NCBI GenBank assembly: GCA_029262005.1
Contig: JAJDAG010000150.1
Span: 20,248-84,247 of the forward strand
Reading direction: 5' to 3'
From: Candidatus Zhuqueibacterota bacterium
Lineage (GTDB): Bacteria > Zhuqueibacterota > Zhuqueibacteria > Oceanimicrobiales > Oceanimicrobiaceae
Length of the DNA stretch: 64,000 nucleotides
Shown here: one piece after another, positions 3,126-26,612 of the stretch
Position numbering within the stretch: the first letter of the stretch is position 1
Layout: each line of letters starts with the position of its first letter
Notes under the pieces: generated by a model
The model's input: the letters and a program-made list of their open reading frames with translations, nothing else
What the model was told of the DNA's origin: nothing
The model's database searches: none
Made by a program: the position numbers and the translations under genes

Positions 3126-4397
3126 TTAAACTCTTTTGCCGGTAACGTTTATTTCATATTCCTGAATTTCCTTTAACCAGGATGCTCCAATGGGAACATC
3201 GGATTGCACGCAATAATAATCCCAAACAGCACCGAATGGCATGTTTTTCAGGCTGTCCAACATAGCGAGCCGGGCGAAATTGTTGCCCTCAGCTTCGTAA
3301 GTTCTCAGTTTATCACTGGGTTCCAAAAGTGCAATCAGCAACCCTTTTAATGTTGCGCGTGTGCCGATGGTCCAGGCGCCGACCCGATTCATGCTGGCAT
3401 CGAAGAAATCAAGCGCGATGTTTATATGTTCCAGTTTATTACTCCGGACAATTTCCTCGGTAACAGCGCGAATATCATCGTTTAGAATAACGACGTGATC
3501 GCTGTCCCAACGAACCGGGCGACTGACATGCAGCAGAATTTCATCGCAAAATTGCATCGTTGCAGAGATTTTGTCTGCGACAGATTCCGTTGGATGAAAG
3601 TGGCCCAAATCGAAACACGGGACAATGCCTTTCGTCAAGGCATAGGCCAGATAGAATTCATGAGAGCCGACCACATAAGCTTCGCTACCAATGCCAAAAA
3701 GCTTGCTTTCAACCGCGTCCTTCATTTCAGAAGACGGTAATATATCGGAGAGAATTTCATCTAACGATGCTTTCAAAAGCGCTCTGGGCGTCCACCGGTC
3801 AATAGGTGTGTCTTTGTCGCCATCCGGAATCCAGAGATTGTGAATACAGGGGCTAGCCTGCTCTCTACCAAAAAATGCGCTAACCTGCCGGCACAACTTA
3901 ACATGCTCAATCCAAAATTGCCGAATCCCCTTGTCTCTATTACTTAACGTAAAACCGGAATCGGCTTTCGGATGAGAAAAACAGGTTGCGTTGAAATCCA
4001 GTTTGACCCTTTGCTCCTTTGCCCAATCGACCCAGCCCCGGTAGTGCTCAGGGCCAATCTCATTTCGATCAACCAGCTTGCCGCCAAATTCTCCATACAT
4101 GGCATGCAGGTTTAAGCGATGGCTTCCCGGTATCAAGGAATAAGCTTTTTCCAAATCCTGACGCAATTCCCGAACGGTTCTCGCTTTTCCCGGATGATTA
4201 CCAGTTACCTGGATTCCACCGCCCGACAGTTCGGAATCCGGTTTCTCAAATCCGCCGACATCGTCACCCTGCCAGCAGTGCAACGAAATGGCAATATCTT
4301 TCAATCGAACCATTGCAGACTCAGTGTCGACGCCCAATTCAGCATAGGATTCTTTGGCAATTTCGTAAGCCTTTTCAATACGATCTTTTGCAGCCAT
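3126..4397 (-). CDS. rhaA: L-rhamnose isomerase
   Basis: 423-aa ORF, similar in length and sequence to E. coli RhaA (about 419 aa): ISLHCWQGDDVGGFE, HLNLHAMY, DLGHFHPTE, VRWDSDHVV. Confidence 0.9.
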   Translation of the reverse strand: MAAKDRIEKAYEIAKESYAELGVDTESAMVRLKDIAISLHCWQGDDVGGFEKPDSELSGGGIQVTGNHPGKARTVRELRQDLEKAYSLIPGSHRLNLHAMYGEFGGKLVDRNEIGPEHYRGWVDWAKEQRVKLDFNATCFSHPKADSGFTLSNRDKGIRQFWIEHVKLCRQVSAFFGREQASPCIHNLWIPDGDKDTPIDRWTPRALLKASLDEILSDILPSSEMKDAVESKLFGIGSEAYVVGSHEFYLAYALTKGIVPCFDLGHFHPTESVADKISATMQFCDEILLHVSRPVRWDSDHVVILNDDIRAVTEEIVRSNKLEHINIALDFFDASMNRVGAWTIGTRATLKGLLIALLEPSDKLRTYEAEGNNFARLAMLDSLKNMPFGAVWDYYCVQSDVPIGASWLKEIQEYEINVTGKRV

Positions 4398-4429
4398 GAC
4401 AGATCCTTAAGTTTCAATTCTTATTAATT

Positions 4430-5893
4430 TTACTGTTCCAACATATTCTTGAAACGGTCGTATGCCTGTTCCCAGGTCGGCACATCCCTTGGTTCATAAT
4501 TTACAGTGGCAAAAGAATTGCGAATAATAGAGCGACCGTCTGCAATCGAACTTACATGCCCCAGCCCGAGAGCTTGTACCATGATATTTCCGATGGCAGT
4601 TGCCTCAATTGGTCCGGTTATAACAGCAAGCCCGGTGGCATTTGCCGTAAATTGGCAAAGCAATTCATTTTTTGCACCGCCGCCAATGACATGGATTGTC
4701 TTTATCGTATGTGGATACATCTGCTGCAACTGCTCAAGTACAAAACGATATTTCAAGGCGAGGCATTCTAAGACACAGCGTACAATATCGTCGGCGGAAT
4801 CCGGTACGTTTTGTCCCGTCTTCCTGCAGAATGCCCGGATTGCATCCGGCATGTCCGGCGGATTCAGAAACGACGGGTCATCCGGATCAATCATATATTT
4901 AAAAGGCGTAGCAATCGCTACTCTTTCTGTTAACTCAGCATAAGTGATGGCTTGAGCCCTATCCCAGGATTTTTTGCACTGCTGAACAATCCACAATCCC
5001 ATAACGTTCTTCAGAAGCCGGAAAGTACCTTCCACACCGCCTTCGTTTGTAAAATTAAAATCAAAAGCCTGTTCAGTGAGAATGGGATTCGCCATCTCGA
5101 CACCCAGAAGCGACCATGTCCCCGAGCTTAAATAAGCCCATTCCTTTCCTTCCGCTGGAACAGCTGCAACGGCAGAACCGGTGTCATGACTGGCGCAGGC
5201 GATAACCGGAACTGGTTCCAGCCCGGTTTCTGCCATCACAGTCTGATGCAACTTGCCGATGGTTGTTCCCGGCGACACTATTTCCTGCAGTTTGGTTTTG
5301 GGTATCGCGAGCATCTCGAGAATCTCATCATCCCAGTCGGCTTTGGCAGGATTGTAAATTTGACTTGTAGTCGCGAAGGTGAATTCTGTCTTCATTTTTC
5401 CCGTCAGAAGATAGTTGAAAACATCCGGCATAAAAAGAATATCACTCGCTGCTTGCAAAAGAGGAGACCGCACTCTTGACATCGCAAAAATTTGGTAAAT
5501 CGAATTGAAAGGTAACATCTGGATACCGGTCAATTCATAAATACGCTTTGCCGGGATAAGCTTATAGAACTCTTCCATCATACCGTCAGTGCGTGAATCG
5601 CGATAAGCAAAAGGCAAGCCGAGAAAACTCCCGTCTTCCGCAAGCAGGGCAAAATCAACACCCCAGGTATCTACAGAGATACCAGCCAATTCATCCGCAC
5701 AGCTTAACAGGCCCTTTTTCATCTCTTCAAACAGACGAAAGATATTCCAATGCAAACGCCCAAGAATATTGACCATGCCATTTGGGAAACGGTTCAATTC
5801 TTTGATCGTAAGATTGCCATTCTGCAGCGTACCAAGAATAGTCCGGCCACTTTCCGCACCTAAATCGAAAGCAATATAGTTTGATTTTGGCAT
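4430..5893 (-). CDS. rhaB: Rhamnulokinase (FGGY family)
   Basis: ORF 4430..5968. I place the start at the internal ATG (5893, MPKSNYIAFDLGAESGR) because FGGY kinases begin just before the xxDLGxxSGR phosphate-1 motif. It aligns along its length with E. coli RhaB as I remember it (DTWGVDF, AYRDSRT, ASHDTGSAV, LSSGTWSL, TNEGG, HVIGGG). Confidence 0.9.
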   Translation of the reverse strand: MPKSNYIAFDLGAESGRTILGTLQNGNLTIKELNRFPNGMVNILGRLHWNIFRLFEEMKKGLLSCADELAGISVDTWGVDFALLAEDGSFLGLPFAYRDSRTDGMMEEFYKLIPAKRIYELTGIQMLPFNSIYQIFAMSRVRSPLLQAASDILFMPDVFNYLLTGKMKTEFTFATTSQIYNPAKADWDDEILEMLAIPKTKLQEIVSPGTTIGKLHQTVMAETGLEPVPVIACASHDTGSAVAAVPAEGKEWAYLSSGTWSLLGVEMANPILTEQAFDFNFTNEGGVEGTFRLLKNVMGLWIVQQCKKSWDRAQAITYAELTERVAIATPFKYMIDPDDPSFLNPPDMPDAIRAFCRKTGQNVPDSADDIVRCVLECLALKYRFVLEQLQQMYPHTIKTIHVIGGGAKNELLCQFTANATGLAVITGPIEATAIGNIMVQALGLGHVSSIADGRSIIRNSFATVNYEPRDVPTWEQAYDRFKNMLEQ

Positions 5894-6165
5894 CAGATTA
5901 TCATCGCATTGTTGAGAATTGTGATTTTTTTGTTCAAGCCGGTGAAATCCAGGTAAAATGTACAACACAACTTCGTGTTACTTTGGCATGTTAAGAGTGG
6001 AAAATTCAGGGCCCCAGGCGTTCTTTACAGTTTTGTTAAAATAATGAACAAGCTTCTCTAAGTCAACACTAAAGGTCATGATTGATTAAGAAGCGCAAGG
6101 CTTTTATTCCCAGGCGATGAGCAGTCGGTTTTATTTTCCTCTTTCCCTTGTCATTTTGCTTGCTT

Positions 6166-6196: not shown

Positions 6197-6334
6197 TTTG
6201 CATCCAAGTTAACGGACGGACAGGATGTCTTCATTGTGGCGGACAGCGGCAAGTCTGGCAGACTGGTTTAGCGACCATCCAATACCGAAATGTAAACGTC
6301 CGAAGAGCAATTTAACTCAACTGAAATCCTCTTT

Positions 6335-6622: not shown

Positions 6623-6646
6623 GAACGGTTTCCGGGGCAGAAAAGT

Positions 6647-6910: not shown

Positions 6911-6925
6911 AATCCAAAACCGCAA

Positions 6926-7213: not shown

Positions 7214-7260
7214 CAAGACCCCGGGAAATGAATAGAAACACGAATTAACTCAAGAACAAT

Positions 7261-7986: not shown

Positions 7987-8004
7987 CTGCACCCAGGAGA
8001 ACAA

Positions 8005-9435: not shown

Positions 9436-9482
9436 CTGATAATGAAATTAAAACGAAAAACTAAACTAAGGAGACACCGGGG

Positions 9483-9782
9483 ATGGCACTCGAAGCACTA
9501 GGTATGATCGAAACGAGAGGACTCGTAGGCGCAGTCGAGGCTGCCGATACGATGGTTAAGGCGGCAAATGTGCATTTAATTGGCAAATCTCAAATTGGCG
9601 GTGGTTTGGTAACCGTCATGGTGCGCGGGGACGTCGGGGCCGTAAAAGCAGCCACGGACGCAGGTGCTGCCGCGGCGGAAAAAGTCGGCGAATTGATATC
9701 CGTACATGTTATACCAAGACCACACAATGATGTCGAAATGATTTTACCAACTGCAACTCAGGGCAGTGGGACGAAAAAGTAA
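9483..9782 (+). CDS. BMC-H hexameric shell protein (PduA/EutM-like, Pfam BMC domain)
   Basis: 99 aa: [61 protein letters not shown]. Textbook BMC-H. Confidence 0.95.
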
Positions 9783-9792
9783 GGATCAAATC

Positions 9793-10581: not shown

Positions 10582-10593
10582 CCGCGCCAATTC

Positions 10594-11787
10594 ATGAAAG
10601 TTATTGTCTGTAACATCGGTTCGAGCAGTCTGAAGTTCCAACTTCTTGAAATGCCGGCCGAGAACCTTCTTGCTCGGGGTCACATCGAAAGGGTTGGTTC
10701 AGACCTTTCAGCAATCCATTATTTCATTGGTAGTGAAAAAGTTAACGAGTCACAGCTTGCGCTGCCGAGCCACCGCGAGGCCGTGCAAAATATGCTGGAT
10801 TTTCTGGTACAGCCTGAATATGCTTTACTGAAAAATCTTGACAAAATTGATGCCGTTGGCTTCAAAACCATTCAGGCAGGCGACAAAAACGGTTCGGTGT
10901 TGTTGACACCTGATGTCCTTGAAGCCATGGCGTATTATAAAAACCTGGCCCCCGCACATAATCCTCCCTACCTCACTGCTATTCACAGACTTCGAGAGCT
11001 GTTGCCCGATGCACCTTTGGTTGGTGTCTTCGAGCCCGGTTTTCACCTGGATGCGCCGGACTACGCCAAAGTCTATGGAACGCCAATTGATTGGCTTACA
11101 GAGTTCGGCGTAAAAAAATACGGCTACCATGGTGCTTCACACCGGTTTGTCACTGCGGAAACGGTCCGGATTTTGGGCCTGCCTGCAAATGCGCACAAAA
11201 TCATAACATGCCATCTTGGCGGTTCCTCATCGCTCTGCGCCTTCAAGAATGGTGTCTCCATTGACACATCCATGGGCTTTACACCGCAATCCGGACTCAT
11301 TCAAGGAACCCGCATCGGAGACATGGATCCCTATGTGTTGCCATATATCATGGACAAAAAAGGATTAACACTTGAGCAAGCCCTTCAAGCCTGCGCAAAA
11401 GAGGCTGGTTTAGCAGGGCTTTCGGGCACCTCCGGCGATATGCGCGACATTAAGGCGGCTATTGCCAAAGGGTGTACACAGGCCTTGCTCGCGAGGAATA
11501 AATTTATCTACGACATCAAAAGGTATCTCGGAGAATTTCTGGTGTTGATGGAAGGTTTGGATGCCGTGACCTTCACCGGCGGTATCGGTGAGAAAGACGC
11601 CGAACTACGTCATGAAATCCTGCAAAGTCTGCATTTTCTGGGGTGTGCAATGGATACGGTAAAAAACGAAAAGCATGATACAATTATTTCTACGCAGCGA
11701 TCGAAAATAGCGGCTTTGGTGCTGGAAACTAACGAAGAAATTGTTGTGGCACGAGAAACGGTTGCAGTGGTACAAGGACTAAATTAA
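10594..11787 (+). CDS. ackA: Acetate (acyl) kinase
   Basis: 397 aa: MKVIVCNIGSSSLKFQLLEM, YGYHGASH, HLGGSSS, GGIGE. Confidence 0.95.
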   Translation: MKVIVCNIGSSSLKFQLLEMPAENLLARGHIERVGSDLSAIHYFIGSEKVNESQLALPSHREAVQNMLDFLVQPEYALLKNLDKIDAVGFKTIQAGDKNGSVLLTPDVLEAMAYYKNLAPAHNPPYLTAIHRLRELLPDAPLVGVFEPGFHLDAPDYAKVYGTPIDWLTEFGVKKYGYHGASHRFVTAETVRILGLPANAHKIITCHLGGSSSLCAFKNGVSIDTSMGFTPQSGLIQGTRIGDMDPYVLPYIMDKKGLTLEQALQACAKEAGLAGLSGTSGDMRDIKAAIAKGCTQALLARNKFIYDIKRYLGEFLVLMEGLDAVTFTGGIGEKDAELRHEILQSLHFLGCAMDTVKNEKHDTIISTQRSKIAALVLETNEEIVVARETVAVVQGLN

Positions 11788-11835
11788 GGCCAACATATAT
11801 TTACCCCGGCCATACCCGTTCCGCTCACCAGCTTA

Positions 11836-12486
11836 CTACGGACCAATTACGACCATAACCTTGCCCGGACCATGAACCCCAAGGGTCAGAGAAAGCTCAA
11901 TATCTGCTGTTCGGCTGGGACCGGTGACAATATTTAAGCACGACGAACGACTCACCTCTTTCACCTTTTTACTGAAAAACTCGCCCATGCTAAGCAAAAT
12001 ATCTTTCCGGGACAGCAGGGCCAGGTGCTCGAAAGGCAGTAGAGAGGCAGTCCTCGGCTTACCCTCTCCTGAGCACAGAACCAGCGATCCGGTTTCAGCA
12101 ATGGCGGCATCGCAACCGGTTAAACCTAAGTCAGCAGCTGCTTGAAAGGACATATCATCGTGCTCGAAACAGACTTTCCCACGCTGTAGAATAGCACCCA
12201 TGTCATACGGCAATTGCTCGGCATCCCAACTGAGAATGGATTTATCTTTTGTAAGTTTTTGAATCTGCCTCTGAACCCCATCTTCAGTTTCTTCGAGATA
12301 ACATGATACTCCCAGGACGTCAAGCTCCTCCAGTAATCTTTGCAATGGATCAGTCTCTGGCCGAAAGTCTTGTTGCAGCCCGGCACTCGTCCCCTGGTTT
12401 ATTTTCGGGAGCCGTGTCGCCTGCTGTGAATTTCTAATCTGTGAGAGGATCTTTGCTTTGGAACTGGCTGGTCGGCTGTCATTCAT
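11836..12486 (-). CDS. lutC: Lactate utilization protein C (LUD domain)
   Basis: ORF 11836..12549. The start is placed at the internal ATG 12486, which overlaps the lutB stop in ATGAATGA. YkgG/LutC-like sequence, last gene of the lutABC order. Confidence 0.8.
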   Translation of the reverse strand: MNDSRPASSKAKILSQIRNSQQATRLPKINQGTSAGLQQDFRPETDPLQRLLEELDVLGVSCYLEETEDGVQRQIQKLTKDKSILSWDAEQLPYDMGAILQRGKVCFEHDDMSFQAAADLGLTGCDAAIAETGSLVLCSGEGKPRTASLLPFEHLALLSRKDILLSMGEFFSKKVKEVSRSSCLNIVTGPSRTADIELSLTLGVHGPGKVMVVIGP

Positions 12487-13879
12487 GGTTTCCACCCCTG
12501 TCTTGCCACATTTCTTGAAAAGATTTACGAGCTGGCGTTTTGAGGTCACGAACTTTAGTCCATCCGCGCAGGGGTGGAAAAGAGCTTGTTATCCAGCCAT
12601 CAGCAGCCAATAATCTCAGAAACCACCGCCCAAGACTTGTCAATCCCTTGTACATTTTCGGCATTATAGCTATTACACCAAAACCCATCATAGCCAATTG
12701 TAAACCCAGTGAAGCCTTACTTTTCAATGGCGTGTTGTGGCGCAACTTCAATAACATCCTGGGGATATCTATTCTGACGGGACACACCTCCTGGCATGCC
12801 CCACAAAGCGTGCTCGCGGCCGGTAACTCGTGCCAGGTGCTGAGCCCCTTAAGTCCTGGTGTGATAATAGAGCCAATGGGACCGGCATAAGTATCCCCAT
12901 AAGCATGGCCACCGATGTTCTTGTAAATTGGACAGACATTAAGACAGGCGCCACAACGGATACAAGCGAGGCTTTCTGCCAGGTCACCACCCAGAATTGC
13001 ACTGCGACCATTATCTACAAGTATTACGTGCACCGCCTCCGGGCCGGATTCCTTCCCCCGCCGTGGCCCTTGAATGATGGTTGTGTAAGCGGTCAGTTTT
13101 TGTCCGGTCGCCGAACGGGCTAACAATTTCAAGTAGCGATCCAGGTCTGCAAGATTGGCAACCAGTTTTTCGATTCCAATCAAAACGACATGTACTTTCG
13201 GCAGCGTTGTGACCATGCGTCCGTTGCCTTCGTTTGTAACCAGGCAAATACTGCCGGTTTCAACCACGCCAAAATTGGCACCGGTAATACCCATGTCTGC
13301 ATCCAAAAACTCCTGACGAAGTTTCTCCCTTGCAATCCCGGCTAAAGTCTCTGGCTCGTCGGAGAAAGGCACTGACAACCGGTCATGCATGAGTTGGCCA
13401 ACGTCCTCACGCGTTAGATGGATTATGGGGACAATAATGTGCGAGGGATGATCGTCTGCAAGTTGGACGATATATTCGCCAAGATCCGTTTCAACAACTC
13501 TAAGGTCTGCTGCCATTAGCGCTTCGTTCAGGTGAATTTCTTCTGACAGCATGGACTTTGCTTTTACAATCTTCTTTACAGCATGCTTTTGAGCAATCTC
13601 CACGACAGTATTATTTGCTTCTTCACCGTCAATGGCCCAATGTACATGGCAGCCGTTTTCCTTTAAACGCTTTTCGAATTTAAGAAGGTTCTCACCTAGA
13701 TCTTGCAGGATTTCTATCTTGGAATTACGAGCGATATCGCGTATGGCCTCGGCATTTTCAAGAGAAGAAAAGGCAGACAACCGTCGGGCCCACAGTAGAT
13801 TGGTGGCGTTTTTTAATGCACCGCTGAGTTTGTGATCGTCAAGCGCATGCACGACGCGGTCGGTAAATTGAGACATCAA
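12479..13879 (-). CDS. lutB: Lactate utilization protein B (4Fe-4S, LUD domain)
   Basis: 466 aa with two ferredoxin-type clusters (CIRCGACLNVCPIY and CGACQEVCPVRI). YkgF/LutB-like. Has a 4-nt overlap with lutA. Confidence 0.9.
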   Translation of the reverse strand: MMSQFTDRVVHALDDHKLSGALKNATNLLWARRLSAFSSLENAEAIRDIARNSKIEILQDLGENLLKFEKRLKENGCHVHWAIDGEEANNTVVEIAQKHAVKKIVKAKSMLSEEIHLNEALMAADLRVVETDLGEYIVQLADDHPSHIIVPIIHLTREDVGQLMHDRLSVPFSDEPETLAGIAREKLRQEFLDADMGITGANFGVVETGSICLVTNEGNGRMVTTLPKVHVVLIGIEKLVANLADLDRYLKLLARSATGQKLTAYTTIIQGPRRGKESGPEAVHVILVDNGRSAILGGDLAESLACIRCGACLNVCPIYKNIGGHAYGDTYAGPIGSIITPGLKGLSTWHELPAASTLCGACQEVCPVRIDIPRMLLKLRHNTPLKSKASLGLQLAMMGFGVIAIMPKMYKGLTSLGRWFLRLLAADGWITSSFPPLRGWTKVRDLKTPARKSFQEMWQDRGGNHE

Positions 13880-14619
13880 TCGAGCCTGTTATCAAGAGTC
13901 TGAGCGATATGATACACTTTTAAAGACGAGCCCTTCCGGTGCAGCCCGCCCTCCAGGTGCATCAGGCAACCCATATCACAACTGACAATATTATCTACAT
14001 CGCTTGCTTCTAAATGGTTGATCTTGTTCTGCATCATTTTACCGGAAATCTCCGGATTCTTAATGCAAAACAACCCTCCAAAGCCACAGCATTCCTGCTG
14101 ATCCTCGAATTCACCCATCTCAAGATCTGCGACATTCTCCAATAAAATTTTTGGCTGCTCTTTTACTTTTAGCCCCCGCAAAAGGTGACATGAGGGATGG
14201 TAGGCAGTGCGTCCCTTCAATTGAGCACCTAAATCAGTGACGCCCAAGACATCAACCAAAAACTGACTGAACTCATAGCAGCGGCTTGAAACAGCATCGA
14301 CCATAGCCAAAAGATCTGGCTCATCGTTAAAAAGAATACGGTATTGGTGGATAATCATATCACCACACGAGCCGGATGGAATCACTATATATCCCTCGGT
14401 ATTAAATAGGGTCTGCAAATTTTTCTTAGCGACTTTATGTGCTTCTTTAACAAAACCGGAGTTATAAGCGGGTTGCCCGCAACAAGTTTGATTCATTGGC
14501 ACCTGAACTTCTAATCCGAGCCTTTCGAGAATATTGACCACCGCCATCCCGACTTCCGGATAGAATTCGTTGATCAGGCAGGTGTGGTATAACTGCACTA
14601 TCTTAGATTTACCAGGCAA
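13876..14619 (-). CDS. lutA: Lactate utilization protein A (CCG-domain Fe-S oxidoreductase)
   Basis: 247 aa: HTCLINEFYPEVGMAVVNILERLGLEV..QTCCGQPAYNSGF and a second ECCGFGG motif. YkgE/LutA-like. Confidence 0.9.
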   Translation of the reverse strand: MPGKSKIVQLYHTCLINEFYPEVGMAVVNILERLGLEVQVPMNQTCCGQPAYNSGFVKEAHKVAKKNLQTLFNTEGYIVIPSGSCGDMIIHQYRILFNDEPDLLAMVDAVSSRCYEFSQFLVDVLGVTDLGAQLKGRTAYHPSCHLLRGLKVKEQPKILLENVADLEMGEFEDQQECCGFGGLFCIKNPEISGKMMQNKINHLEASDVDNIVSCDMGCLMHLEGGLHRKGSSLKVYHIAQTLDNRLD

Positions 14620-14634
14620 TTGATGCGTCCTTTC

Positions 14635-15771
14635 CTATACATACATTTTATTAAAAAAGCCATCCGCTCTTGCCACAGCCGCCCGCATCATGTCCTCTGC
14701 CTTTGCTGTATTTCTTGCAGTAAGGTGAGCAAGCAATTGCCCAACATTGAGTTCGCGAGCTGCTTCCTCGCAGGCTTCCCAGCTCAGAATACTTCTCACA
14801 ACGCGATCGATTCCCTGTTCCGTGCTATCGTAAGGTCTGACTTGCATATCATGCCCCTTCCAGCGTTGGTAGCCGGCTTGTTGCATCAGTCCGGCGATGG
14901 CCACATTCATACCGTTGATGCGTACACCATGATCAATGTCATACTTAGCTGGTCCACCAAGTATAATGCCGTCATTATAACCCTGGCTGTTTAGATGCGT
15001 ATGAAACATTGCCCGGTTATCCAATTCTTCCACAGTATCGTAGACAGGGTCAAGGCCGATCATTTCTGAATGGCCGATTTCTTTGTTAACCCCCTTTTTC
15101 TCCCTGGATATACCAAACTCTTCCTCCACTCTTCTCCAAAATAGCAATGCACTCGCCACCGTCGGAATAAGCATGACAGGATGGCCCTCGTTCGGTTTCG
15201 GTTCTATGGCAAAATAAAGATTGCCTCCCAGAGTTTGTTCAAAGTGGCACAGCTTTGCCATGCTTTCCTTGAGGTTCTGATACATCTGCTTGATAAAAAC
15301 GGTCGCAATATCGTAGCCAAAAGAGCCGTTCCAGATGACCAACGACGGTGCTTTATCTGCATCAGGGTGCCAGGCCTTACGGAGCGGACCATAGACGAGT
15401 TCAACAGATCTTTCACCATACTTTTCAGCAGCCTCCCGCTCCTTTGCATCCAGTGAAGCGATCCCACCATAAGCAAAATGGAGATGCGCACCTGGTGTAA
15501 TCATGGCCAGGTAAATACCAGTATCGAAGAGCGCGTCTGCGATATCTACTGCATTATTTTCATTGTACTCATTATCATAATGCAACTCAATGCCCAATTG
15601 GATATGGTTAGGCAGTCTCGGTGATACTTTATCCTTAACCAATCGAACAAAATCCGTTGTATCAAAATTTTCAGCAGCCCATTGTGGTCGAATATCCGCA
15701 GGCACAAATCCACCTTTGCCGGCATGGAAGGTCCACCTGCAAATACTATGAAGTGTCTTGTTTTCAGGCAT
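14635..15771 (-). CDS. Divergent xylose-isomerase-family aldose-ketose isomerase, specificity uncertain
   Basis: 378 aa, alignable by eye to class I xylose isomerase: LHYDNE (cf FHDDD), FAIEPKPNE, NKEIGHSE (cf NPEVGHE), KYDIDHG (cf KYDQDLR), GHDMQVRP (cf RHFDFKPP). However, FHIDLN is FHTHLN here. Confidence 0.7.
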   Translation of the reverse strand: MPENKTLHSICRWTFHAGKGGFVPADIRPQWAAENFDTTDFVRLVKDKVSPRLPNHIQLGIELHYDNEYNENNAVDIADALFDTGIYLAMITPGAHLHFAYGGIASLDAKEREAAEKYGERSVELVYGPLRKAWHPDADKAPSLVIWNGSFGYDIATVFIKQMYQNLKESMAKLCHFEQTLGGNLYFAIEPKPNEGHPVMLIPTVASALLFWRRVEEEFGISREKKGVNKEIGHSEMIGLDPVYDTVEELDNRAMFHTHLNSQGYNDGIILGGPAKYDIDHGVRINGMNVAIAGLMQQAGYQRWKGHDMQVRPYDSTEQGIDRVVRSILSWEACEEAARELNVGQLLAHLTARNTAKAEDMMRAAVARADGFFNKMYV

Positions 15772-15773
15772 TC

Positions 15774-17279
15774 TTAATTATTCCGTCTCAATTCGGTTTT
15801 CAATTCACGGGACCAATTCGAATACGCTTCCTGGTAATCGGCCGTGAGAGCCATATTCGGCGCAATCACTTTTTCACAACTAAGGCCAATAAATGCCTCT
15901 TCAAAACCTGTGTAGATGCCGGCGCCAACACCGGCACCCCTTGCAGCGCCCTGGGAGCCATCCGTGTTGTATAATTCAACTTGAGCTCCGGTAACTGTGG
16001 CAAACGCCTCGGTGAAAAGCGGGCTAAGAAACATATTTGTGTATCCGGCCCGCACCGAGTCGACTTGAATTCCCATTTCCCGCATAATCTCTACTCCGTA
16101 ATTGAGCGCGAATACAATGCCCTCCTGCGCTGCCCGCAGAAAATGGGGACACGAATGTATGTTGAATTTCAAGCCCCGGATCAAGCAACCGAGATCCAAG
16201 TTCTCCAATATCCGTTCGGCGCCGTTGCCAAAGGGTAAGATGAGCAGTCCTTCCGAACCGACAGGCGCCTGTGCGGCTAACGCATTCATCTCAGCATAAG
16301 TCAACGTCTTGCTGCCATTACTGCCGATATTTTTTCTCAGCCAACTGTTCAAGATACCTGTGCCGTTGATGCATAGAAGTACACCGTATAGCGGGTTTTC
16401 AATGGTATCATTGACATGGACAAATGTGTTCACGCGGCATTTTTTGTCATAATTTGGTTGGTTGCCAATGCCGTATACCACTCCAGAGGTACCTGCTGTT
16501 GCAGCTAGTTCTCCAGGATTTAACACGTTTAGAGAAAATGCGTTATTGGGTTGATCTCCCGCGCGATATGCCACCTTGATACCGGGGTGCAAGCCCAGCT
16601 CGCCCGCTGCGCTTTTGCTTATTACGCCTTGCACGGAAAATGTCGGGACCATCTCAGGAATCAAATCACCGGACAGCCCGAAATGTTTAAGAAGTGATTC
16701 CGCAATATCCTGGTTCTGATAATCCCAAAGAATTCCCTCAGAAAGTCCGGGGCGGGTTGTTGCTATATCGCCTGTCAACTTCATGGCGATATAATCTCCG
16801 GGCAGCATTGCCTTGTAAATTTTAGCATAAATATCGGGCTCATTTTCCATAACCCATTTGAGTTTGGATGCAGTAAAGTTGCCCGGCGAGTTGAGAAACT
16901 GTCGAAGACATTTATCCGGGCCAAGACTGGAGAACGCTTCCCGACCGATATCTACCGCACGGCTGTCGCACCAAATAATGGCCGGACGTAACGCCCGATG
17001 TTGTTTGTCCACAATTACCAGGCCGTGCATCTGATATGAAATACCCACAGCCTGGATTTGACCAATGTCAATATCCGCCTGAGCCAGCATTTTTGCTGTG
17101 GCTAACCTGGTGTGCTGCCACCAGACTTCCGGGTCTTGTTCCGCCCAGCCCGGTTTGGCTGCTATAATCGTCATCTCGGTCGCAGGAGAAGAGGCGCTGG
17201 CAACAACACGACCCGTCTCAGCCTCTAATACCGATGCCTTGATAGAAGAACTGCCTACATCGTAGCCCAACAAAAACAT
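15774..17279 (-). CDS. FGGY-family sugar kinase (xylulokinase-like)
   Basis: ORF 15774..17342. Start placed at ATG 17279 (MFLLGYDVGSSSIK) with AAGGG about 11 nt upstream; ATG 17288 is also possible. Has GWAEQDP and FGGY C-terminal motifs. Separated from the isomerase by a 2-nt gap. Confidence 0.8.
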   Translation of the reverse strand: MFLLGYDVGSSSIKASVLEAETGRVVASASSPATEMTIIAAKPGWAEQDPEVWWQHTRLATAKMLAQADIDIGQIQAVGISYQMHGLVIVDKQHRALRPAIIWCDSRAVDIGREAFSSLGPDKCLRQFLNSPGNFTASKLKWVMENEPDIYAKIYKAMLPGDYIAMKLTGDIATTRPGLSEGILWDYQNQDIAESLLKHFGLSGDLIPEMVPTFSVQGVISKSAAGELGLHPGIKVAYRAGDQPNNAFSLNVLNPGELAATAGTSGVVYGIGNQPNYDKKCRVNTFVHVNDTIENPLYGVLLCINGTGILNSWLRKNIGSNGSKTLTYAEMNALAAQAPVGSEGLLILPFGNGAERILENLDLGCLIRGLKFNIHSCPHFLRAAQEGIVFALNYGVEIMREMGIQVDSVRAGYTNMFLSPLFTEAFATVTGAQVELYNTDGSQGAARGAGVGAGIYTGFEEAFIGLSCEKVIAPNMALTADYQEAYSNWSRELKTELRRNN

Positions 17280-17458
17280 CGCAGACATCACCCTTATTTT
17301 ATTTAAATTAGTGATTGACCGAACACTCGAAAACCATGTCATTGCGGTATTCTTTTAAGTCGGAATCCACATGCCCGTACGCAGAAAACTGCCGCTAAAA
17401 ATTCGCAACAATGACAGCAACGGGCAGTTTTCGGTCAATCACAATTTAACATCTGTTT

Positions 17459-18901
17459 TCATTTAGCTGCCATCGATTTCTTGGCTTCCTTCAGCCTGTC
17501 CGCCTCAGATTTTGATTTATAGTAATCATCAAGGGGATAGCAGCCCGATATCATTCCGACTCGCGGCGCTGTGGTACAATCACTAAAAGTCCGGCAGATA
17601 AGCTTTCTCTGTAATTGCTGTCCTTTCAATACAGCAGCAGGCAATTCGGGATAGGATAACACCATCCGTCCGATACCGACAAAGTCGGCCATATTCGTAC
17701 TTACAACTTGCTGGGCTACATTAGGCAACCACTCCTGTAAGTAAGAATACCCCGAGCCTACGAACAACAAGTCTGGCCGATACTGCTTTAATCGCGCCGT
17801 TACCTCTATCTGGCGGGCAACACCTACCAGCGGATCCTCCGGAGGCTGGTATCCATCCGAAGGAGGAAAGAGAGCGGGTCTTTGAATATGTGGGTTATAA
17901 TAAGGACTGCCGGCCGAGACACAGACGAGTTGGATATCAAGGGATGCTAACAGGTCAAGAAAAGCGCACGGCTCTTTGAGGTCAATACCCAAGCCAGTTT
18001 CATCACCGCCAAATGCAAAGCGATAAACTTCTTCTTTGGTTGATTCAGGCTGTCCGATGGCATCCTCACCCATACGGAATGGAACAAAGTCAAATGCACT
18101 TAGCCTGACGGCAATGTCCAGACCGGGAACCTCTGAGCGAATCGCAGTTGTTATTTCTCGTAAAAACCGGGTACGATTTTCAAAGCTGCCACCGTAGTTG
18201 CCGTCACGATCGAAAGAGCTTAAAAATTCATGACCGAGATAGCCATGGCAATGTTTAATATCCACAAAGGCGTAACCCGCTTTATATGCCAATTTTGCAG
18301 CCTCGACAAAATCCGCAATGAGGCGAACAATCTCACCATCACTTATGGTAGGGGCGTCCGGCGTCAAATTGAATTTCTTATCCAGGAGCGGGTGATGATA
18401 TAGAATTTTTGGCTCCAGAACATCGTTTTGATTTGGCCGGGCAAAGCGCCCGGAATGTGTAAGCTGAAGTCCCACCAAAAGGTCATCACAGTTGTCAAAA
18501 AGTTCTTTATGTGTCTCTAAAAGCGCCTCGCGTAAACCTGCAATGCCGACCAAATTTTTCTCATTTATCATCAACTGGTTGGGGTTGGCCCGCCCGTCCT
18601 GGCGAACGGCAACCGCTTCCCCACCGCAGATTAATTTAGCGCCGCTTTGTCCGAACCGGCGCCACCTTCGTAGCGTATCTTCGGTGGGACGCCCATCTTT
18701 GGTGCCATCCCAACCTTCCATCGGCAGCACGGAAAAACGATTGCCAATTGTGAATCCGTTTGCAAGTGTTAATGGTTTTGCCAGGGGAGAGTCTGGCCCT
18801 GACTGCACCCGCTCATCAAAAGGCAAGCTTATACCCAGTTGTTCCACATAATTCTGAAACTGTTCTGGCGTTTTTAGAGTAGCAATTTTCCGGTATTTCA
18901 C
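17459..18901 (-). CDS. Old Yellow Enzyme-family NAD(P)H:flavin oxidoreductase (long form)
   Basis: 480 aa with OYE TIM-barrel motifs: LQLTHSGRF and [15 protein letters not shown]. Confidence 0.8.
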
Positions 18902-19194
18902 TTTTTCTTCTTCAATCCAATCAGAAAAATGTTGAATGATTTTTTAATCGTGATGGAATCTCATCTTTCACCTCGACTTATTGATGGAGACCGTCACCCA
19001 AATCCGGGAATGTTAACAATAAAATGATGCGGGTGCGGCCGTAGTAACTTACATCTCGATCACAATGCTTTTCTTCGCAAGATCGGCTTTATTTCTTGGT
19101 TGGTACGGTCAATCGATCTGTAGATGGAATGGCCAAACCAGGCCTTAAGAACTCACCGATTTGAGCCTCACTCTTCACCCCGACTCTTTCAACC

Positions 19195-20532
19195 TTACTC
19201 GGGAGATGCGTATTCAAACAACTTCCGTCCGAGATAAACAACGGATGCTGAACTCCATCCGTGAAGCGGAACTACAGAATATCGCTCACGCGGCAGATTG
19301 ATATTTCCTTCGACTACGTTATACTTCTCCCAGAGCTTACCGGTTTGCTCATAAACATTCAACTGAACCTCAAGATATTTGCAGGCTAATCGATTTGCTT
19401 CTTTATAATAACCGTAGCGCTCCAGTGAATCAATCACAACAATCTGAGATGGCGGCCAACCGTTCGGATAATCCCATTGGAGCGCTTTGAATTCAGGATG
19501 AGGACTTGGGTAAACCCTGTCCGTCTGCGGCAATCCATAAGGCTGTTCAAAACGACTGAGATTCTGCACCATTTTCTCGGCTTGCTTTGCCGTAGCAACA
19601 CCTGCCCACATTGCCCAGTAAGCCGCAAGCGACCAATAGGGCAATTGCGTTTTTTCCTCATATTGAAACTCAAAGAAAAAGCCTTTTTCTTCGCGCCAAC
19701 AGTATTCACGTATTCTCTCAGCTCGTTTTTCTGCTTCCTCATCCCATTTCTTGCCTTCTTTCTGCCAACCGATTTCCCGGGCTATCCAGGAAAGTGTTTT
19801 TGCGTAGCGGACAAGCGCACAATTGGTCATTAGCGGATTGCATTTTCGGATATCACCATCATATATAGCCGTAAAATCAAGTGATTCGGCTTCTGCAGCC
19901 AACTCCTGTCGCAGCCGATTTTGACTTAATCCAAACTGAGCCGAATCTCCTTTGAAAATATCGGGATCCGTTAAATCCCGATTCGTGGCCAACCCGGTGG
20001 GCGTTTGATGGTGCGCAGCCAGCCAATATCCCATATACTCTTTTTTCAAAACGGGAAATGCTCTCACCAGGAAGTCACGATCTTGTGTATGCTCAAAATA
20101 GAGCTTGACGCTCAAAGGATGAACCGGCGTCTGGCTGCGGCCGAGGTAATAGCTTCGATTGCCATTCAGTACCATACCATAGCGTTCAATCATAAAAAGC
20201 TGGTTGAGGATATGATTTTGAATGATGTCATAGCGGTCGTGTGCGGCCAGAGCGAGGTTGGTGAAGTATGTGTCCCAGCAATACATCTCCGGAAAATTTC
20301 CTTCACTGCCACCGGCTGCAGTATATGGAAATGGCAGATAGAGCAGGGTCGCTTCGTTTTCCTCTGACTCCTGACGCTCTTGCTCGCGATGTTCTTCATC
20401 GGCGTACCAGATTCTATTCAAATCCGGATCGCGAATTTCAGCTTCGCGTGCCTGGGTTACATCGGCATCCCACCAGTCACGAATTTCCTGATCCAGCGAT
20501 CGCCACTGACTTTCTATTTCATTTAGATTCAT
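19195..20532 (-). CDS. GH37 trehalase-like glycoside hydrolase, cytoplasmic
   Basis: 445 aa with both trehalase signature-like motifs: GGSEGNFPEMYCWDTYF and QWDYPNGWPPSQ. No signal peptide. Confidence 0.7.
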   Translation of the reverse strand: MNLNEIESQWRSLDQEIRDWWDADVTQAREAEIRDPDLNRIWYADEEHREQERQESEENEATLLYLPFPYTAAGGSEGNFPEMYCWDTYFTNLALAAHDRYDIIQNHILNQLFMIERYGMVLNGNRSYYLGRSQTPVHPLSVKLYFEHTQDRDFLVRAFPVLKKEYMGYWLAAHHQTPTGLATNRDLTDPDIFKGDSAQFGLSQNRLRQELAAEAESLDFTAIYDGDIRKCNPLMTNCALVRYAKTLSWIAREIGWQKEGKKWDEEAEKRAERIREYCWREEKGFFFEFQYEEKTQLPYWSLAAYWAMWAGVATAKQAEKMVQNLSRFEQPYGLPQTDRVYPSPHPEFKALQWDYPNGWPPSQIVVIDSLERYGYYKEANRLACKYLEVQLNVYEQTGKLWEKYNVVEGNINLPRERYSVVPLHGWSSASVVYLGRKLFEYASPE

Positions 20533-20570
20533 TTAGACTTTATCAACGCTCCCAAACTTGGGACATCTAA

Positions 20571-22877
20571 TCAGACCTTCCACATGATGGTGTCATCGAT
20601 TCCGGGCTCCACATGGCGGTATTTTTCCATGAGTTCAATCTTTCGCTTTACCAGCGCACCCATGTTCTCGCCATAAATATAGCTCGTCTCACCCGATTTT
20701 GATACGACCATAAAATTGACATTACTGGACTCCCACAGCTCAAGCAAATCTTTAGCGTTCTGAATTTCCCTGGTTATCATCACATCCAGATATTTACGCC
20801 AAGCGCTTCTTTCGTCAGCGTTATCAGCGGCCCGATAGCCATAAACGCCTGCCACCCATGCAGCCACACTGCGTTGGGTGAAAATCCAACAGCGCAGGCC
20901 CCTCAGACGATCTCTTTGATCGATAAAAACCTGGCGGGCTTCCTGAGAGGTGGCGGCATCATCAATTACCTGGCCTGCCAATTCAATGGCTGAATCAAGC
21001 TTGCCAAGCACATTGTCATCAACCCGCTGCGCAAACTTCTCTCCATACTCTTGTGATATCAAATCGAACAGAACGTCCCTGCCCAGATCCACGAGGTTGG
21101 TGTTGTTATCCGAACTCACCAGAAAATCTTCGTAATACATCCGATCGTTCTCCGGCACTGCCTGCAAATCCGGGATGATTGGACGGACCCAAACACGCAA
21201 CCAGACAAAACCAAAATGTGAATATAACGGCAAAGGCGGCATCCAGCGAATCGCTTCTTCAGCATGTTTCCAAACTTCGACAAGTCTGTCGCAATTGGGC
21301 GCACCAACCCAATCCGTTGCTTTTTTCCTGATAAATTCAGCAATGTCCATTTTGGGATCGAGGGAAAAAGCTCGAAAGACTTCCTGGTTTATGTGATATG
21401 GCGCCAATGCGGATGGTGTAAATCCCCCTAAATTGGCGGCATATTCTACGCCCCTGTCTACCATTGCCTGCAATTTTTGATGTAACAGTCCTGGAAAGGG
21501 AATGCCCACGAGTGGCTCCAAACTATAGCCATTGCCTTGCGAATAAATCAGATGAGAATTTACGCCCTTCGCTTTGTGCTGCTCGATCATTTTGTTTTCT
21601 TGGGCATCCATCTTTATATGCTGAATGCCGCCGGCCACGCCGGTAATATCCGGATACTTGTCATGATGATATGGCAAATCATAGCCACGCACCAACAGCG
21701 AAGGCAGCTCAACATCCAAACGTTCTTCGAGGTGATTTAGAATAAAATCGTGCTCAACCTTAAACGGTTCGAGCCGCAGCGTCACCCGGAAGTCCGGATT
21801 TATTTCAGATGCCGCATCGCGTAAAATCTTCATAAAGTGCACAATATTTTTACCGGCGACCTCAGCAATCTGCTCATGTGTTCGCCATTCCCGGATCAAA
21901 TACGGGCCACCGTTTCGTCCGACATAAAGTGAACTTGTGTACTCAAATCCGGCGCCGCTATCGTTGCTCCAAACGCTCATGTAGGCCAAATCCGGAACTT
22001 GCTGCAATATCTTCTGCAACATTTCGCTGTAGTGCGCCTGAACCTTCGGATGGGAATGGGTCAACGTATAACGCGGCAATCGGCTGCGAAACGGATGATC
22101 GACACGTGCCCCGCGTAAGGTAGGGTATTTTTGTAGCAGCCTTTCAGGTACGGTTCGAGGTTCGAAACAAAGGAGGCCTGGTTCGAGACCATATTTTCGA
22201 CCAAAGTGAGCATATCTTTTCAATAAATCTAAATTGGCTGTTAGATAATCCTGAGGATAAATGCCCTTGTTTAATTCACTATAAACATACTGGTCCAGCG
22301 CCATGCAATAAGAATAAAATTGCGAGTAAAATTCCCCGGGAACTGCCTCCTCATGCGATACCGGCTGGGCCAGGCCATTTACTTCAATGTGGGTATACCC
22401 TGTCCGTGCTAACTCCCTGATATGTTGTTCAGGATCCACATTTCGAGCAGTGCGCCAGGTTTGCGTGAGCACATAATCAAACAAGGGGCGGTGCCAGCGG
22501 AATGCCGTAGAATGATAGGTTCCGTTTTTGAAAGTAGCCACAGGCTGTTCAACCCACTCTTCCACGAGGCGCGTTGTGTAAGCGTACAAAATGGATGGAT
22601 GAGAGACAATCAATTCGCCGGTACCATCCTCGTCCAGGCGAAAATAAGCCCAATGCTTATCTTTTGGTGCACCTTTCTTAATGCTATCGATGGGGAAATC
22701 AGCATTGCCGGCGACTGCTAGTTTAAAGATACCAGACGATTCAGCAGGGAAGCTTTTCGAATGAACATCGAGATTAAAAATAGTTTTGACTTCACCGGCA
22801 CTTGTGTCTTCTACCGGCAATGGTTTGTCGGGAATCTGAATAATTTTCGTTTTCCGTAAAGCATCCGAGACTGTCAT
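20571..22877 (-). CDS. Large uncharacterised protein (768 aa), possibly carbohydrate-active
   Basis: Uninterrupted 2.3-kb ORF (TTG-ATG; ATG at 22877 used). I recognise no motif. Its context lies between the trehalase-like gene and the sugar operon. Confidence 0.55.
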   Translation of the reverse strand: MTVSDALRKTKIIQIPDKPLPVEDTSAGEVKTIFNLDVHSKSFPAESSGIFKLAVAGNADFPIDSIKKGAPKDKHWAYFRLDEDGTGELIVSHPSILYAYTTRLVEEWVEQPVATFKNGTYHSTAFRWHRPLFDYVLTQTWRTARNVDPEQHIRELARTGYTHIEVNGLAQPVSHEEAVPGEFYSQFYSYCMALDQYVYSELNKGIYPQDYLTANLDLLKRYAHFGRKYGLEPGLLCFEPRTVPERLLQKYPTLRGARVDHPFRSRLPRYTLTHSHPKVQAHYSEMLQKILQQVPDLAYMSVWSNDSGAGFEYTSSLYVGRNGGPYLIREWRTHEQIAEVAGKNIVHFMKILRDAASEINPDFRVTLRLEPFKVEHDFILNHLEERLDVELPSLLVRGYDLPYHHDKYPDITGVAGGIQHIKMDAQENKMIEQHKAKGVNSHLIYSQGNGYSLEPLVGIPFPGLLHQKLQAMVDRGVEYAANLGGFTPSALAPYHINQEVFRAFSLDPKMDIAEFIRKKATDWVGAPNCDRLVEVWKHAEEAIRWMPPLPLYSHFGFVWLRVWVRPIIPDLQAVPENDRMYYEDFLVSSDNNTNLVDLGRDVLFDLISQEYGEKFAQRVDDNVLGKLDSAIELAGQVIDDAATSQEARQVFIDQRDRLRGLRCWIFTQRSVAAWVAGVYGYRAADNADERSAWRKYLDVMITREIQNAKDLLELWESSNVNFMVVSKSGETSYIYGENMGALVKRKIELMEKYRHVEPGIDDTIMWKV

Positions 22878-22948
22878 CAAGAAACTCCATTCTAGGTGAA
22901 TAATAATTTGATACTTTTGTGCGCTCCTAAAAACTTTGCTGACCCGGA

Positions 22949-23103
22949 GAATTCATCACCACAGAGGCACTGAGCCATATTTCTAAAAATTAAGTGATCT
23001 TGAATTTGTGTTTATACAAAACCAGGTTCTGTAAATCAAAGTGAGTTTAATTACCTTTGCTTAGTGTTCTCTGTGCCTCTGTGCAAATTTTATGGATGAA
23101 TTC
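22949..23103. repeat. About 155-bp imperfect inverted-repeat element (arms GAATTCATC..CACAGAGGCAC / GTGCCTCTGTG..GATGAATTC)
   Basis: CACAGAGGCAC at 22960-22970 and its exact complement GTGCCTCTGTG at 23074-23084. Outer GAATTCATC at 22949-22957 pairs with GATGAATTC at 23095-23103. No ORF lies between. Confidence 0.6.
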
Positions 23104-23145
23104 AACTTGTAGATTTGCAGCACAGAATCAGGAGTGAGACCTGGC

Positions 23146-24213
23146 CTATTTCAACCAATCATCTAAGTGTTCCTTGACAAATTCATCATCGTTCAGGTGC
23201 GGATAGGTTGCATAGATTCGATCAATTTCTGAAAGCTGGCCAGGGGACAATTGTTCATCCGGGTTGAGCGTCCACAAGCCTTGCAGCAAGCCCTGGCGCC
23301 GGAGAATTTCATGAATTCCCGGAATACAGCCCGCAAAATTATTGTGCGGATCAAAAACCGCTGCATTCGCATCTGTAATTTGTTGCCCCAGTGTCAAAAT
23401 ATCAAACAAAGTCTTTTTTTTCGCCTTGCGTACTGCATGAACCGCAGCAAGAAGTTCGACTGCCTTTTTCGTCCAAAAAGCCCAATGGCCTAAAAGCCCG
23501 CCAACTATCCGCACAGTTGCGGTATCAGACTTATCGCCAAAATGAAATTCGCTGAGCAGATCGACAAGGATATTATCGTCGTTGCCGGTATAAAGTGCGA
23601 TCTCATGCGCCCTTCCTGACTCAGCAACAGCTCTAACAACATCCAGTGTGTAATAGCGATTAAACGGCGCTATCTTTATGGCCATTAAATTCTCAATTTC
23701 TACGGCCTGGCGCCAAAAATCACTGTTGAGAATTAAACCACCTACAGAGGGTTGAAGATAAAATCCCATTACAGGAATGACCTCTGAAACGGCGCGTAAA
23801 TGACTTACCAAAGCAGCATTATTGGCGTTCTGCAAGGCGCCAAGACTGACCAGGCCAAGATGGTAACCCAAGTCGGCGGCCAATTTTGCTTCCGCAACTG
23901 CCTGCACAGTGGGGCCGGCAATTCCGGCGATTCGAATGTAAGGTTTTCCAGTTGAGCTTGAAATTGAATCCAAGGTCTCAGCCGCCAAAGTTAAAACAGG
24001 TTTATACAAACCTACCCTGGGTTCACGAATTTCAAATTGTGTTGTGTGTACACCAACAGCAACCCCGCCGGCCCCGGCGGCGCAATAATAGCGTGTGAGT
24101 GCGCACTGCCTTTTCTCGTCTAGTTTGCGGGTACTATTCAATGCCAGCGGGTGGGCAGGAATGACCACACCGTTGCGAAGTTGATCTATAATTTGCTGCG
24201 GTAATGAGGTCAT
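23146..24213 (-). CDS. Dihydrodipicolinate synthase-family (class I aldolase/lyase-like) protein
   Basis: 355 aa with DHDPS-like TIM-barrel features (AGAGGVAVGVHTTQF, MAIKIAPF with candidate Schiff-base Lys). Family-level call only. Confidence 0.6.
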   Translation of the reverse strand: MTSLPQQIIDQLRNGVVIPAHPLALNSTRKLDEKRQCALTRYYCAAGAGGVAVGVHTTQFEIREPRVGLYKPVLTLAAETLDSISSSTGKPYIRIAGIAGPTVQAVAEAKLAADLGYHLGLVSLGALQNANNAALVSHLRAVSEVIPVMGFYLQPSVGGLILNSDFWRQAVEIENLMAIKIAPFNRYYTLDVVRAVAESGRAHEIALYTGNDDNILVDLLSEFHFGDKSDTATVRIVGGLLGHWAFWTKKAVELLAAVHAVRKAKKKTLFDILTLGQQITDANAAVFDPHNNFAGCIPGIHEILRRQGLLQGLWTLNPDEQLSPGQLSEIDRIYATYPHLNDDEFVKEHLDDWLK

Positions 24214-25340: not shown

Positions 25341-25410
25341 TCGGACACTAACCTTGAAAATTCATAAACTACGAAGGACAAGAAGAAATTAATTTACTTG
25401 TCATGCACGC

Positions 25411-26607: not shown

Positions 26608-26612
26608 GGCAC

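Follow-up and report, generated by a model that had tools for sequence, protein, structure and literature searches.

A sugar isomerase, a sugar kinase and three genes for lactate oxidation packed together next to the end of a microcompartment operon raise two questions: which sugar the first two enzymes handle, and where the lactate comes from. We address them for a 64,000-nt stretch of contig JAJDAG010000150.1 (positions 20,248 to 84,247; assembly GCA_029262005.1; hereafter the window) from a Candidatus Zhuqueibacterota bacterium, where five tightly packed open reading frames (ORFs) occupy the minus strand at 17342-11836 in the order kinase, isomerase, lutA, lutB, lutC. The first-pass annotation of this DNA proposed that the isomerase and kinase feed a second 6-deoxyhexose into the microcompartment and that LutABC disposes of the resulting lactate. 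In our view the operon is probably a mosaic of two functional units within a larger island that serves a glycan containing rhamnose. The best reading of the kinase and isomerase is a xylulokinase with a divergent xylose-isomerase-type enzyme, and LutABC would complete the catabolism of rhamnose.

Layout of the operon

The genes on which the argument turns are as follows; L-numbers used below are labels of comparison loci.

15774-17279 (ORF to 17342), minus strand: predicted XylB-like FGGY sugar kinase (FGGY_N and FGGY_C), likely start Met22 at 17279, 501 aa
14635-15771, minus strand: predicted divergent xylose-isomerase-type aldose-ketose isomerase of an uncharacterised clade, 378 aa (TIGR02631, PDB and Foldseek matches)
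13876-14619, minus strand: lutA (lldE-type), two CCG cysteine-rich domains (PF02754 in two stretches, E 4e-34)
12479-13879, minus strand: lutB (lldF-type), LUD and 4Fe-4S iron-sulfur protein (LUD_dom, Fer4_8, LutB_C; TIGR00273, 485.7 bits, above the equivalog cut-off of 444.8)
11836-12486 (longest ORF from a GTG at 12549), minus strand: lutC (lldG-type), LUD domain (PF02589, E 1.7e-26)
6335-11787, plus strand: aldolase-type bacterial microcompartment (BMC) operon with three BMC-P genes, PduL, acylating aldehyde dehydrogenase, BMC-H, class II aldolase and AckA (Pfam, NCBIfam)
5968-4430, minus strand: rhaB (TIGR02627, 504 bits, slightly under the cut-off of 528)
4397-3126, minus strand: rhaA (NF002203, 662 bits against a cut-off of 572)

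The kinase length of 501 aa from Met22 agrees with the 498-501 aa found in relatives. The likely start of lutC is the ATG at 12486, which gives 216 aa; the lutC genes of relatives encode 215-216 aa and overlap lutB by 8-11 nt. Kinase and isomerase are then separated by 2 nt and isomerase and lutA by 15 nt, and lutA overlaps lutB by 4 nt and lutB overlaps lutC by 8 nt. The first-pass annotation was right about five co-directional, closely spaced genes ending 48 nt from the convergent ackA (11836 and 11787), although it listed the isomerase first when in fact the kinase leads.

Independent assembly of a public biofilm metagenome run gave contigs that cross both junctions of the inverted microcompartment operon, which rules out an assembly chimera. 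Promoter and terminator scans of 11.5-19.4 kb returned the same counts as shuffled sequences and therefore do not define the transcription unit; the five genes would be co-transcribed. The spacer between the kinase and the upstream old yellow enzyme (OYE)-like gene holds a perfect 10-nt inverted repeat, GAAAACTGCC ... GGCAGTTTTC (17384-17432, arms 29 nt apart), which could be an operator or an RNA hairpin. A second exact copy, sought as a shared operator, was not found in the window.

The kinase-isomerase pair

The best curated family of the kinase is XylB (TIGR01312, 296.8 bits, below the cut-off of 380.25), with FucK (TIGR02628, 59.5 bits) and RhaB (28 bits) far behind, and its best solved relative is Escherichia coli xylulokinase (2itm, E 4e-47). 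XylB being the best family by a wide margin and equivalog membership not established, we describe the kinase as XylB-like.

All PDB sequence matches of the isomerase are xylose isomerases (XIs), nearly all of class I (E ~4e-14). Its AlphaFold2 model (pLDDT 82.6, pTM 0.86) and the PDB structures that match it have a TIM barrel with the C-terminal helical extension of the XI fold, and the top 50 Foldseek matches of the model are all class I XIs (TM 0.62-0.69). The Pfam model of the XI-like TIM barrel gives 30.2 bits, slightly under its cut-off of 31.1, and among curated families only class I xylA is matched (TIGR02631, 66.1 bits; cut-off 447). A RhaI-type rhamnose isomerase is ruled out, as the RhaA and RhaI models (TIGR02629, TIGR02635) gave no match at E <= 1e-3 and a tblastn search of a plasmid collection gave only class I xylA. 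Family-model searches showed no FucI similarity, and literature searches turned up no non-orthologous fucose isomerase.

The active site was mapped by a hhalign profile alignment to the Streptomyces rubiginosus XI, read against the invariant columns of 58 family members. The XI site consists of metal 1 (Glu181, Glu217, Asp245, Asp287), metal 2 (Glu217, His220, Asp255, Asp257) and the pair His54 and Lys183; nine of these ten positions are invariant in the 58 members, relative to a reference sequence whose residues 67-249 were checked against the PDB sequence matches. The residues kept, as in the class I XylA of Streptomyces, Arthrobacter and Thermus, are His54, Trp137, Glu181, Lys183, Glu217, His220, Asp255, Asp257 and Asp287; Trp16 and Phe26 are apparently kept too, in a by-eye reading outside the computed alignment. 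The protein also resembles class I XylA in length class (378 vs ~388 aa), in its TIM barrel with a C-terminal helical tail and in its XylB-like kinase partner. It differs in having only ~21-30% identity to these enzymes, a seven-residue insertion before the Asp255/257 motif, three substituted active-site residues (considered below) and a compact clade of its own.

An exhaustive search of 1.84 billion cluster representatives returned only 192 matches at E <= 1e-3, among which the clade is compact with a few outliers at 40-47% identity, and true class I XIs stand at ~30-35% identity over the core. Automated annotations call its members 'xylose isomerase', 'TIM barrel protein' or 'AP endonuclease family protein', and none of the clade representatives compared with the curated models reaches any cut-off. 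The 378-aa protein is best read as a divergent, uncharacterised xylose-isomerase-type enzyme whose substrate we infer from its surroundings.

These surroundings were surveyed in a scan of one genome per species, which yielded 80 loci with the isomerase (62-82% identical) from about ten phyla: Planctomycetota, KSB1, Atribacterota, Bacillota, Actinomycetota, Spirochaetota, Fibrobacterota, Thermodesulfobacteriota, Rhodothermales/Salinibacter and Latescibacterota. An orthologous kinase (54-74% identity) is present in 50 of the 80, usually immediately 5' of the isomerase, and another XylB-like FGGY kinase in about 15 more; three different XylB-like lineages accompany the isomerase. Genes for a substrate-binding protein, an ATPase and a permease adjoin the pair in five Atribacterota loci and, more loosely, in one Fibrobacterota and two Bacillota loci; the best families of these transporters are XylF (334 bits; next ChvE, 198) and XylG (666 bits). 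Other recurrent neighbours are a ROK regulator (14 loci) and a glycoside hydrolase (GH) of family GH3 (15 loci). Planctomycetota loci have GH2 and sulfatase genes near the pair, L089 has UxaE, UxuA, Eda and KdgK ahead of it, and in a peat Planctomycetota genome (L081-84) it stands alone among housekeeping genes.

Rhamnose and lactate genes are rare in this company. Only one contig (L001/L002) among the 80 scan loci has lutABC or a class II aldolase within 10 kb, compartment genes beside the isomerase were found in none of them, and no free-standing class II aldolase lies near the pair in any of 32 loci of at least 15 kb, even at E 1e-3. For a pair that can stand alone, the product would have to enter central metabolism directly, as xylulose-5-phosphate does; a 6-deoxyketose-1-phosphate would require a dedicated aldolase and a means of handling lactaldehyde. 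The pair is a separable module, gained and lost independently of the lutABC/rhamnose cluster. We also note that L001/L002 is a single 56,302-bp contig filed in two metagenome-assembled genomes with different phylum labels (Phycisphaerae vs KSB1), and that the 'Phycisphaerae' and 'Deferribacteres' labels on several relatives appear to be binning labels.

The first-pass annotation had mentioned, as its second choice, xylA/xylB-type genes that happen to be joined to lutABC. It is this reading that we favour, with the kinase nearest to XylB and the relatives of the isomerase all XIs. Several points weigh against it. The isomerase fails every curated XI threshold and has no match to the class II model (TIGR02630). 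Three active-site changes relative to XI are invariant, namely Asp245 to His259, Phe94 to His96 and Asp57 to Asn67. L-rhamnose isomerases presumably use a histidine at the Asp245 position as a ligand, so the metal-1 site here would be a hybrid (Glu, Glu, His, Asp). Literature searches found no characterised member of the clade. The XylF-like and XylG-like neighbours score slightly under their equivalog cut-offs. In the close relatives L001 and L085-88 the pair lies directly 5' of a gene for an aldolase fusion, RhaEW, just where one would look for it if its product went to that aldolase. Finally, the only public runs that contain the sequence are three DNA runs.

The likeliest of the alternatives is that the clade has a specificity other than D-xylose and that the pair handles another ordinary sugar, such as another pentose or D-glucose, D-allose or D-ribose, with the ketose phosphate again entering central metabolism directly. 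The three invariant substitutions, the compact and isolated clade with its 192 representatives, the lack of a curated model for it and the sub-threshold transporters would all fit, and we regard this as unlikely. However, the best families of all conserved neighbours (XylF, XylG, XylB) point to xylose, three XylB-like kinase lineages accompany the isomerase, and cultured Atribacterota, a phylum rich in the clade, grow on xylose and xylan (PMC11227167, PMC13408713). A bolder idea, for which we see only a small chance, is that the 378-aa protein founds a third, unstudied class of the XI fold, marked by the hybrid metal-1 site and with a substrate that is perhaps not D-xylose. In the KSB1 and Planctomycetota relatives, in which it is encoded directly 5' of RhaEW and lutABC, the pair could then supply the aldolase or compartment with a second sugar, perhaps a 6-deoxyhexose.

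Rhamnose, lactate and the microcompartment

The lactate genes have steadier partners. The adjacent lutA, lutB and lutC carry the domain set of the LutABC/LldEFG systems of Bacillus subtilis and Shewanella (two CCG domains; LUD, 4Fe-4S and LutB_C; LUD), but they lie inside a sugar-catabolic operon and not with a lactate permease and regulator. The rhaA and rhaB genes seen in the first-pass annotation are confirmed at 3126..5968 and are, on their family matches, a canonical L-rhamnose isomerase and rhamnulokinase.

In relatives, lutA is 68-74% identical and syntenic in L001, L085, L095 and L099. The isomerase is 82% identical in L085-88, of which L085 has the full series and L088 ends inside lutB. 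The order in L085 is GH78, GH88, a KduD-like short-chain dehydrogenase/reductase (SDR), KdgK, Eda, OYE-like protein, kinase, isomerase, a 698-aa fusion, lutABC, rhaB and rhaA; L001 has the same core order, and its lutC overlaps rhaB. In L095, where the kinase and isomerase are missing, the order is a 355-aa and a 769-aa protein (see below), GH37-like hydrolase, OYE-like protein, RhaEW-like fusion, lutABC, rhaB, rhaA, GH88-like hydrolase and SDR, with lutB 70% and rhaA 87% identical to those of the window. The series RhaEW-lutABC-rhaB-rhaA is present in L001, L085-87 and L095, and the RhaEW-like protein, a class II aldolase fused to an SDR, has 693-698 aa in L001, L085 and L095. The rhaA of L001 (17702-18941) gives two separate matches, 17702-18742 and 18771-18941, a split that points to a frameshift or an error of assembly.

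The window presents a fourth state of this island: it has the kinase and isomerase but no fusion gene, and the place between lutC and rhaB is taken by the microcompartment operon in inverted orientation. At this position L001, L085 and L095 have no compartment operon, and their clusters carry the RhaEW-like fusion instead. Synteny thus shows that in the window an inverted microcompartment operon has replaced RhaEW. Across the four states lutABC keeps two constant partners, the rhamnose genes and an aldolase system that produces lactate.

This arrangement has a precedent. RhaEW is a rhamnulose-1-phosphate aldolase/lactaldehyde dehydrogenase that yields dihydroxyacetone phosphate (DHAP) and L-lactate, and lldEFG has been noted in RhaEW-containing rhamnose regulons, where it extends rhamnose catabolism to pyruvate (Rodionova et al. 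2013, PMC3870299). The relatives resemble these regulons in having the fusion followed by lutABC (= lldEFG), rhaB and rhaA. The window differs in that the fusion gene is missing with the microcompartment operon in its place, RhaA stands instead of RhaI and an extra xylose-type module heads the operon.

The compartment operon has the gene content of the Planctomycetota/Verrucomicrobiota (PVM) type, with a class II aldolase, an aldehyde dehydrogenase, PduL, a kinase and three BMC-P genes vs one BMC-H gene, and to this extent its earlier labelling as 'PVM' stands. Its kinship is different: the loci nearest to its aldehyde dehydrogenase (8005-9435) are from KSB1, Calditrichota, Ignavibacteriales and Melioribacteraceae (65-81% identity), and the nearest Planctomycetota match, from Phycisphaeraceae, reaches only 45%. 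The housekeeping SucC (48309-49469) is closest to KSB1, then to the Fibrobacterota-Chlorobiota-Bacteroidota (FCB) group and Acidobacteriota, with no Planctomycetota among the top 80 matches. On these comparisons organism and compartment fall with KSB1, Calditrichota and Ignavibacteria instead of with Planctomycetota or Verrucomicrobiota; the organism is probably a KSB1 bacterium, and the compartment should be read as PVM-like and of the FCB lineage.

Compared with described PVM and PVM-like compartments (Axen 2014, PMC4207490; Sutter 2021, PMC8217296), the operon of the window is without a lactate/malate-dehydrogenase-type alcohol dehydrogenase and a DeoR regulator. In its compartment lineage lutABC is also commonly appended after ackA, for which we found no description in that catalogue literature. 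In L254, L257 and L261 a rhaB-like kinase, three BMC-P genes, PduL (not detected in the compartment locus of L261), the aldehyde dehydrogenase, BMC-H, the aldolase, AckA, lutA, lutB and lutC are co-directional, with lutA-lutC at ~13.8-17 kb and a lutB only 45-49% identical to that of the window. The contig of L259 ends inside lutA (start at 5990), after the compartment genes. In the Verrucomicrobiota loci L111, L116, L120 and L138, lutABC lies inside the compartment locus. Since separate lutABC sets adjoin compartment genes in the FCB group and in Verrucomicrobiota, the link from compartment through lactate to LutABC arose repeatedly. The isomerase, rhaA and RhaEW were found in none of 31 compartment-related loci. 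As a separate observation, L256, L257 and L260 carry ~3 kb extra between the third BMC-P gene and PduL, which is absent in the window and L254.

From these neighbours we infer substrates and a direction of flux. In the first unit, a two-metal, hydride-shift isomerase of the XI fold would turn an aldose into a ketose, which the XylB-like FGGY kinase would phosphorylate. The context makes D-xylose the most probable substrate, converted to D-xylulose and D-xylulose-5-phosphate, and the latter would join the pentose-phosphate pathway with no need of an aldolase or a compartment. RhaA and RhaB would make rhamnulose-1-phosphate, which would feed the compartment and be split by its aldolase into DHAP and lactaldehyde; the acylating aldehyde dehydrogenase, PduL and AckA would take the lactaldehyde to lactate with a gain of ATP. 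In the second unit, LutABC, an iron-sulfur L-lactate oxidase, would convert the compartment's lactate to pyruvate. In the relatives, the lactate source would be the cytosolic RhaEW-like fusion encoded directly 5' of lutA. The earlier claim that LutABC disposes of lactate made from lactaldehyde is well supported by its synteny with RhaEW-rhaB-rhaA and by its place beside compartments of the FCB group and Verrucomicrobiota.

The GH88-like gene of the window and the GH78, KduD, KdgK and Eda genes of relatives suggest a target glycan with rhamnose, uronate and xylose, e.g. ulvan or rhamnogalacturonan, although its identity is speculation. A glycan that holds both sugars would account for the presence of a xylose module in one operon with rhamnose and lactate genes. 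The operon of the window is a remnant of a longer kinase-isomerase-RhaEW-lutABC-rhaB-rhaA operon for a glycan with rhamnose, uronate and probably xylose, and as such a remnant the union of xylA/xylB-type genes with lutABC, which had been thought odd, becomes less so.

The original proposal was that the pair makes a ketose-1-phosphate from a second 6-deoxyhexose such as L-fucose, that the class II aldolase of the compartment (RhaEW in relatives) cleaves it and that LutABC clears the lactate. In its favour, the pair shares an operon with lutABC here and lies directly 5' of RhaEW in L001 and L085-88; fucI and fucK are, as had been noticed, absent throughout the 64-kb window; the metal-1 site has a histidine where XI has Asp245; and the invariant histidine for Phe94 could reshape the pocket. 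However, the pair is a module of about ten phyla, and beyond the immediate relatives no class II aldolase, lutABC or compartment gene lies close to it (0 of 32 long loci; 0 of 31 compartment-related loci); L095 keeps the whole rhamnose/lactate cluster without it. Moreover, the kinase groups with XylB and not with FucK or RhaB, the other contexts of the pair are XylFGH-like transporters, ROK regulators, GH3 and uronate genes, and a ketose-1-phosphate would lead nowhere in the many genomes in which the pair is on its own. We therefore consider this route improbable. Least credible by far is that the isomerase stands in for KduI on the 4-deoxy-5-keto-uronate released by GH88-like hydrolases and does not act on a free sugar: L085 has GH88, a KduD-like SDR, KdgK and Eda but no cupin KduI, and uronate genes adjoin the pair in L089, yet the conserved partner is an FGGY kinase where 2-keto-3-deoxygluconate is phosphorylated by a PfkB kinase already there, most pair loci lack uronate genes and the full XI two-metal hydride-shift site is retained.

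The island and its significance

The first-pass annotation treated 1-17279 as a single functional regulon; that this stretch forms one catabolic island is supported by the gene set syntenic in L001, L085-88 and L095, and the island in fact reaches ~24 kb. The further genes in and around the island are as follows.

3074-1689, minus strand: GH88-like unsaturated uronyl hydrolase (PDB unsaturated glucuronyl hydrolase, E 3e-11)
1577-807, minus strand: SDR (Pfam/NCBIfam)
18901-17459, minus strand: OYE-like flavoprotein, 480 aa (Pfam, PDB), whose match to the Oxidored_FMN barrel is confined to the N-terminal two-thirds of that barrel
20532-19195, minus strand: GH37/trehalase-like hydrolase (Pfam, PDB), syntenic in L095
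within 20571-24213, minus strand: two cluster proteins, one of 769 aa and one of 355 aa, which share 69-77% identity with syntenic counterparts in L001 and L095

The GH88-like and SDR genes close the cluster and are conserved in synteny in L001 as well as L095. All four upstream genes (17459..24213) are syntenic in L095. The OYE-like gene lies directly 5' of the kinase in the window, L003 and L085, and 5' of RhaEW in L095. Searches of Pfam, NCBIfam and PDB gave no match for the 769-aa protein and, for the 355-aa protein, only a weak dihydrodipicolinate-synthase-like one (E 2e-4).

A second sugar cluster follows on the minus strand at 24288-32712, with an NAD-epimerase-like protein, a PfkB kinase, a DUF4432 protein, a protein of the cupin D-lyxose-isomerase family, a GFO/IDH/MocA oxidoreductase, a DeoC/LacD class I aldolase and a 703-aa sodium:solute symporter. 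If any gene set here serves the entry of an unrecognised sugar, the isomerase/kinase/aldolase triad of this cluster is a better candidate than the kinase-isomerase pair. A sulfoquinovose pathway was considered for the cluster and rejected, as its enzyme families differ from those in PMC9594981. Further along the window, at 59200-62864, a radical S-adenosylmethionine (SAM)/SPASM protein with a C-terminal PCP_red domain adjoins a 747-aa protein that has an unusual combination of universal stress protein domains, five PCP_red repeats and a rubredoxin-like domain.

What is new here is modest but real: an uncharacterised, widespread clade of the XI fold with a variant metal site, and a natural replacement of RhaEW by a microcompartment. 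The 'xylose isomerase' label, very widespread in uncultured phyla (Atribacterota, Planctomycetota, KSB1, Fibrobacterota, Bacillota and others), is founded on a clade that lies outside the curated models and has an altered metal site, and the xylose-utilisation calls of many metagenome-assembled genomes depend on it. The enzyme of this clade is also a candidate for biotechnology screening. As for the rhamnose island, it offers a natural swap of two solutions for handling lactaldehyde, a fused cytosolic aldolase/dehydrogenase and a whole microcompartment operon, at the same position in the pathway. With lutABC recurring beside or after aldolase-type compartments, the conversion of lactate to pyruvate becomes a predictable final step of their pathway.

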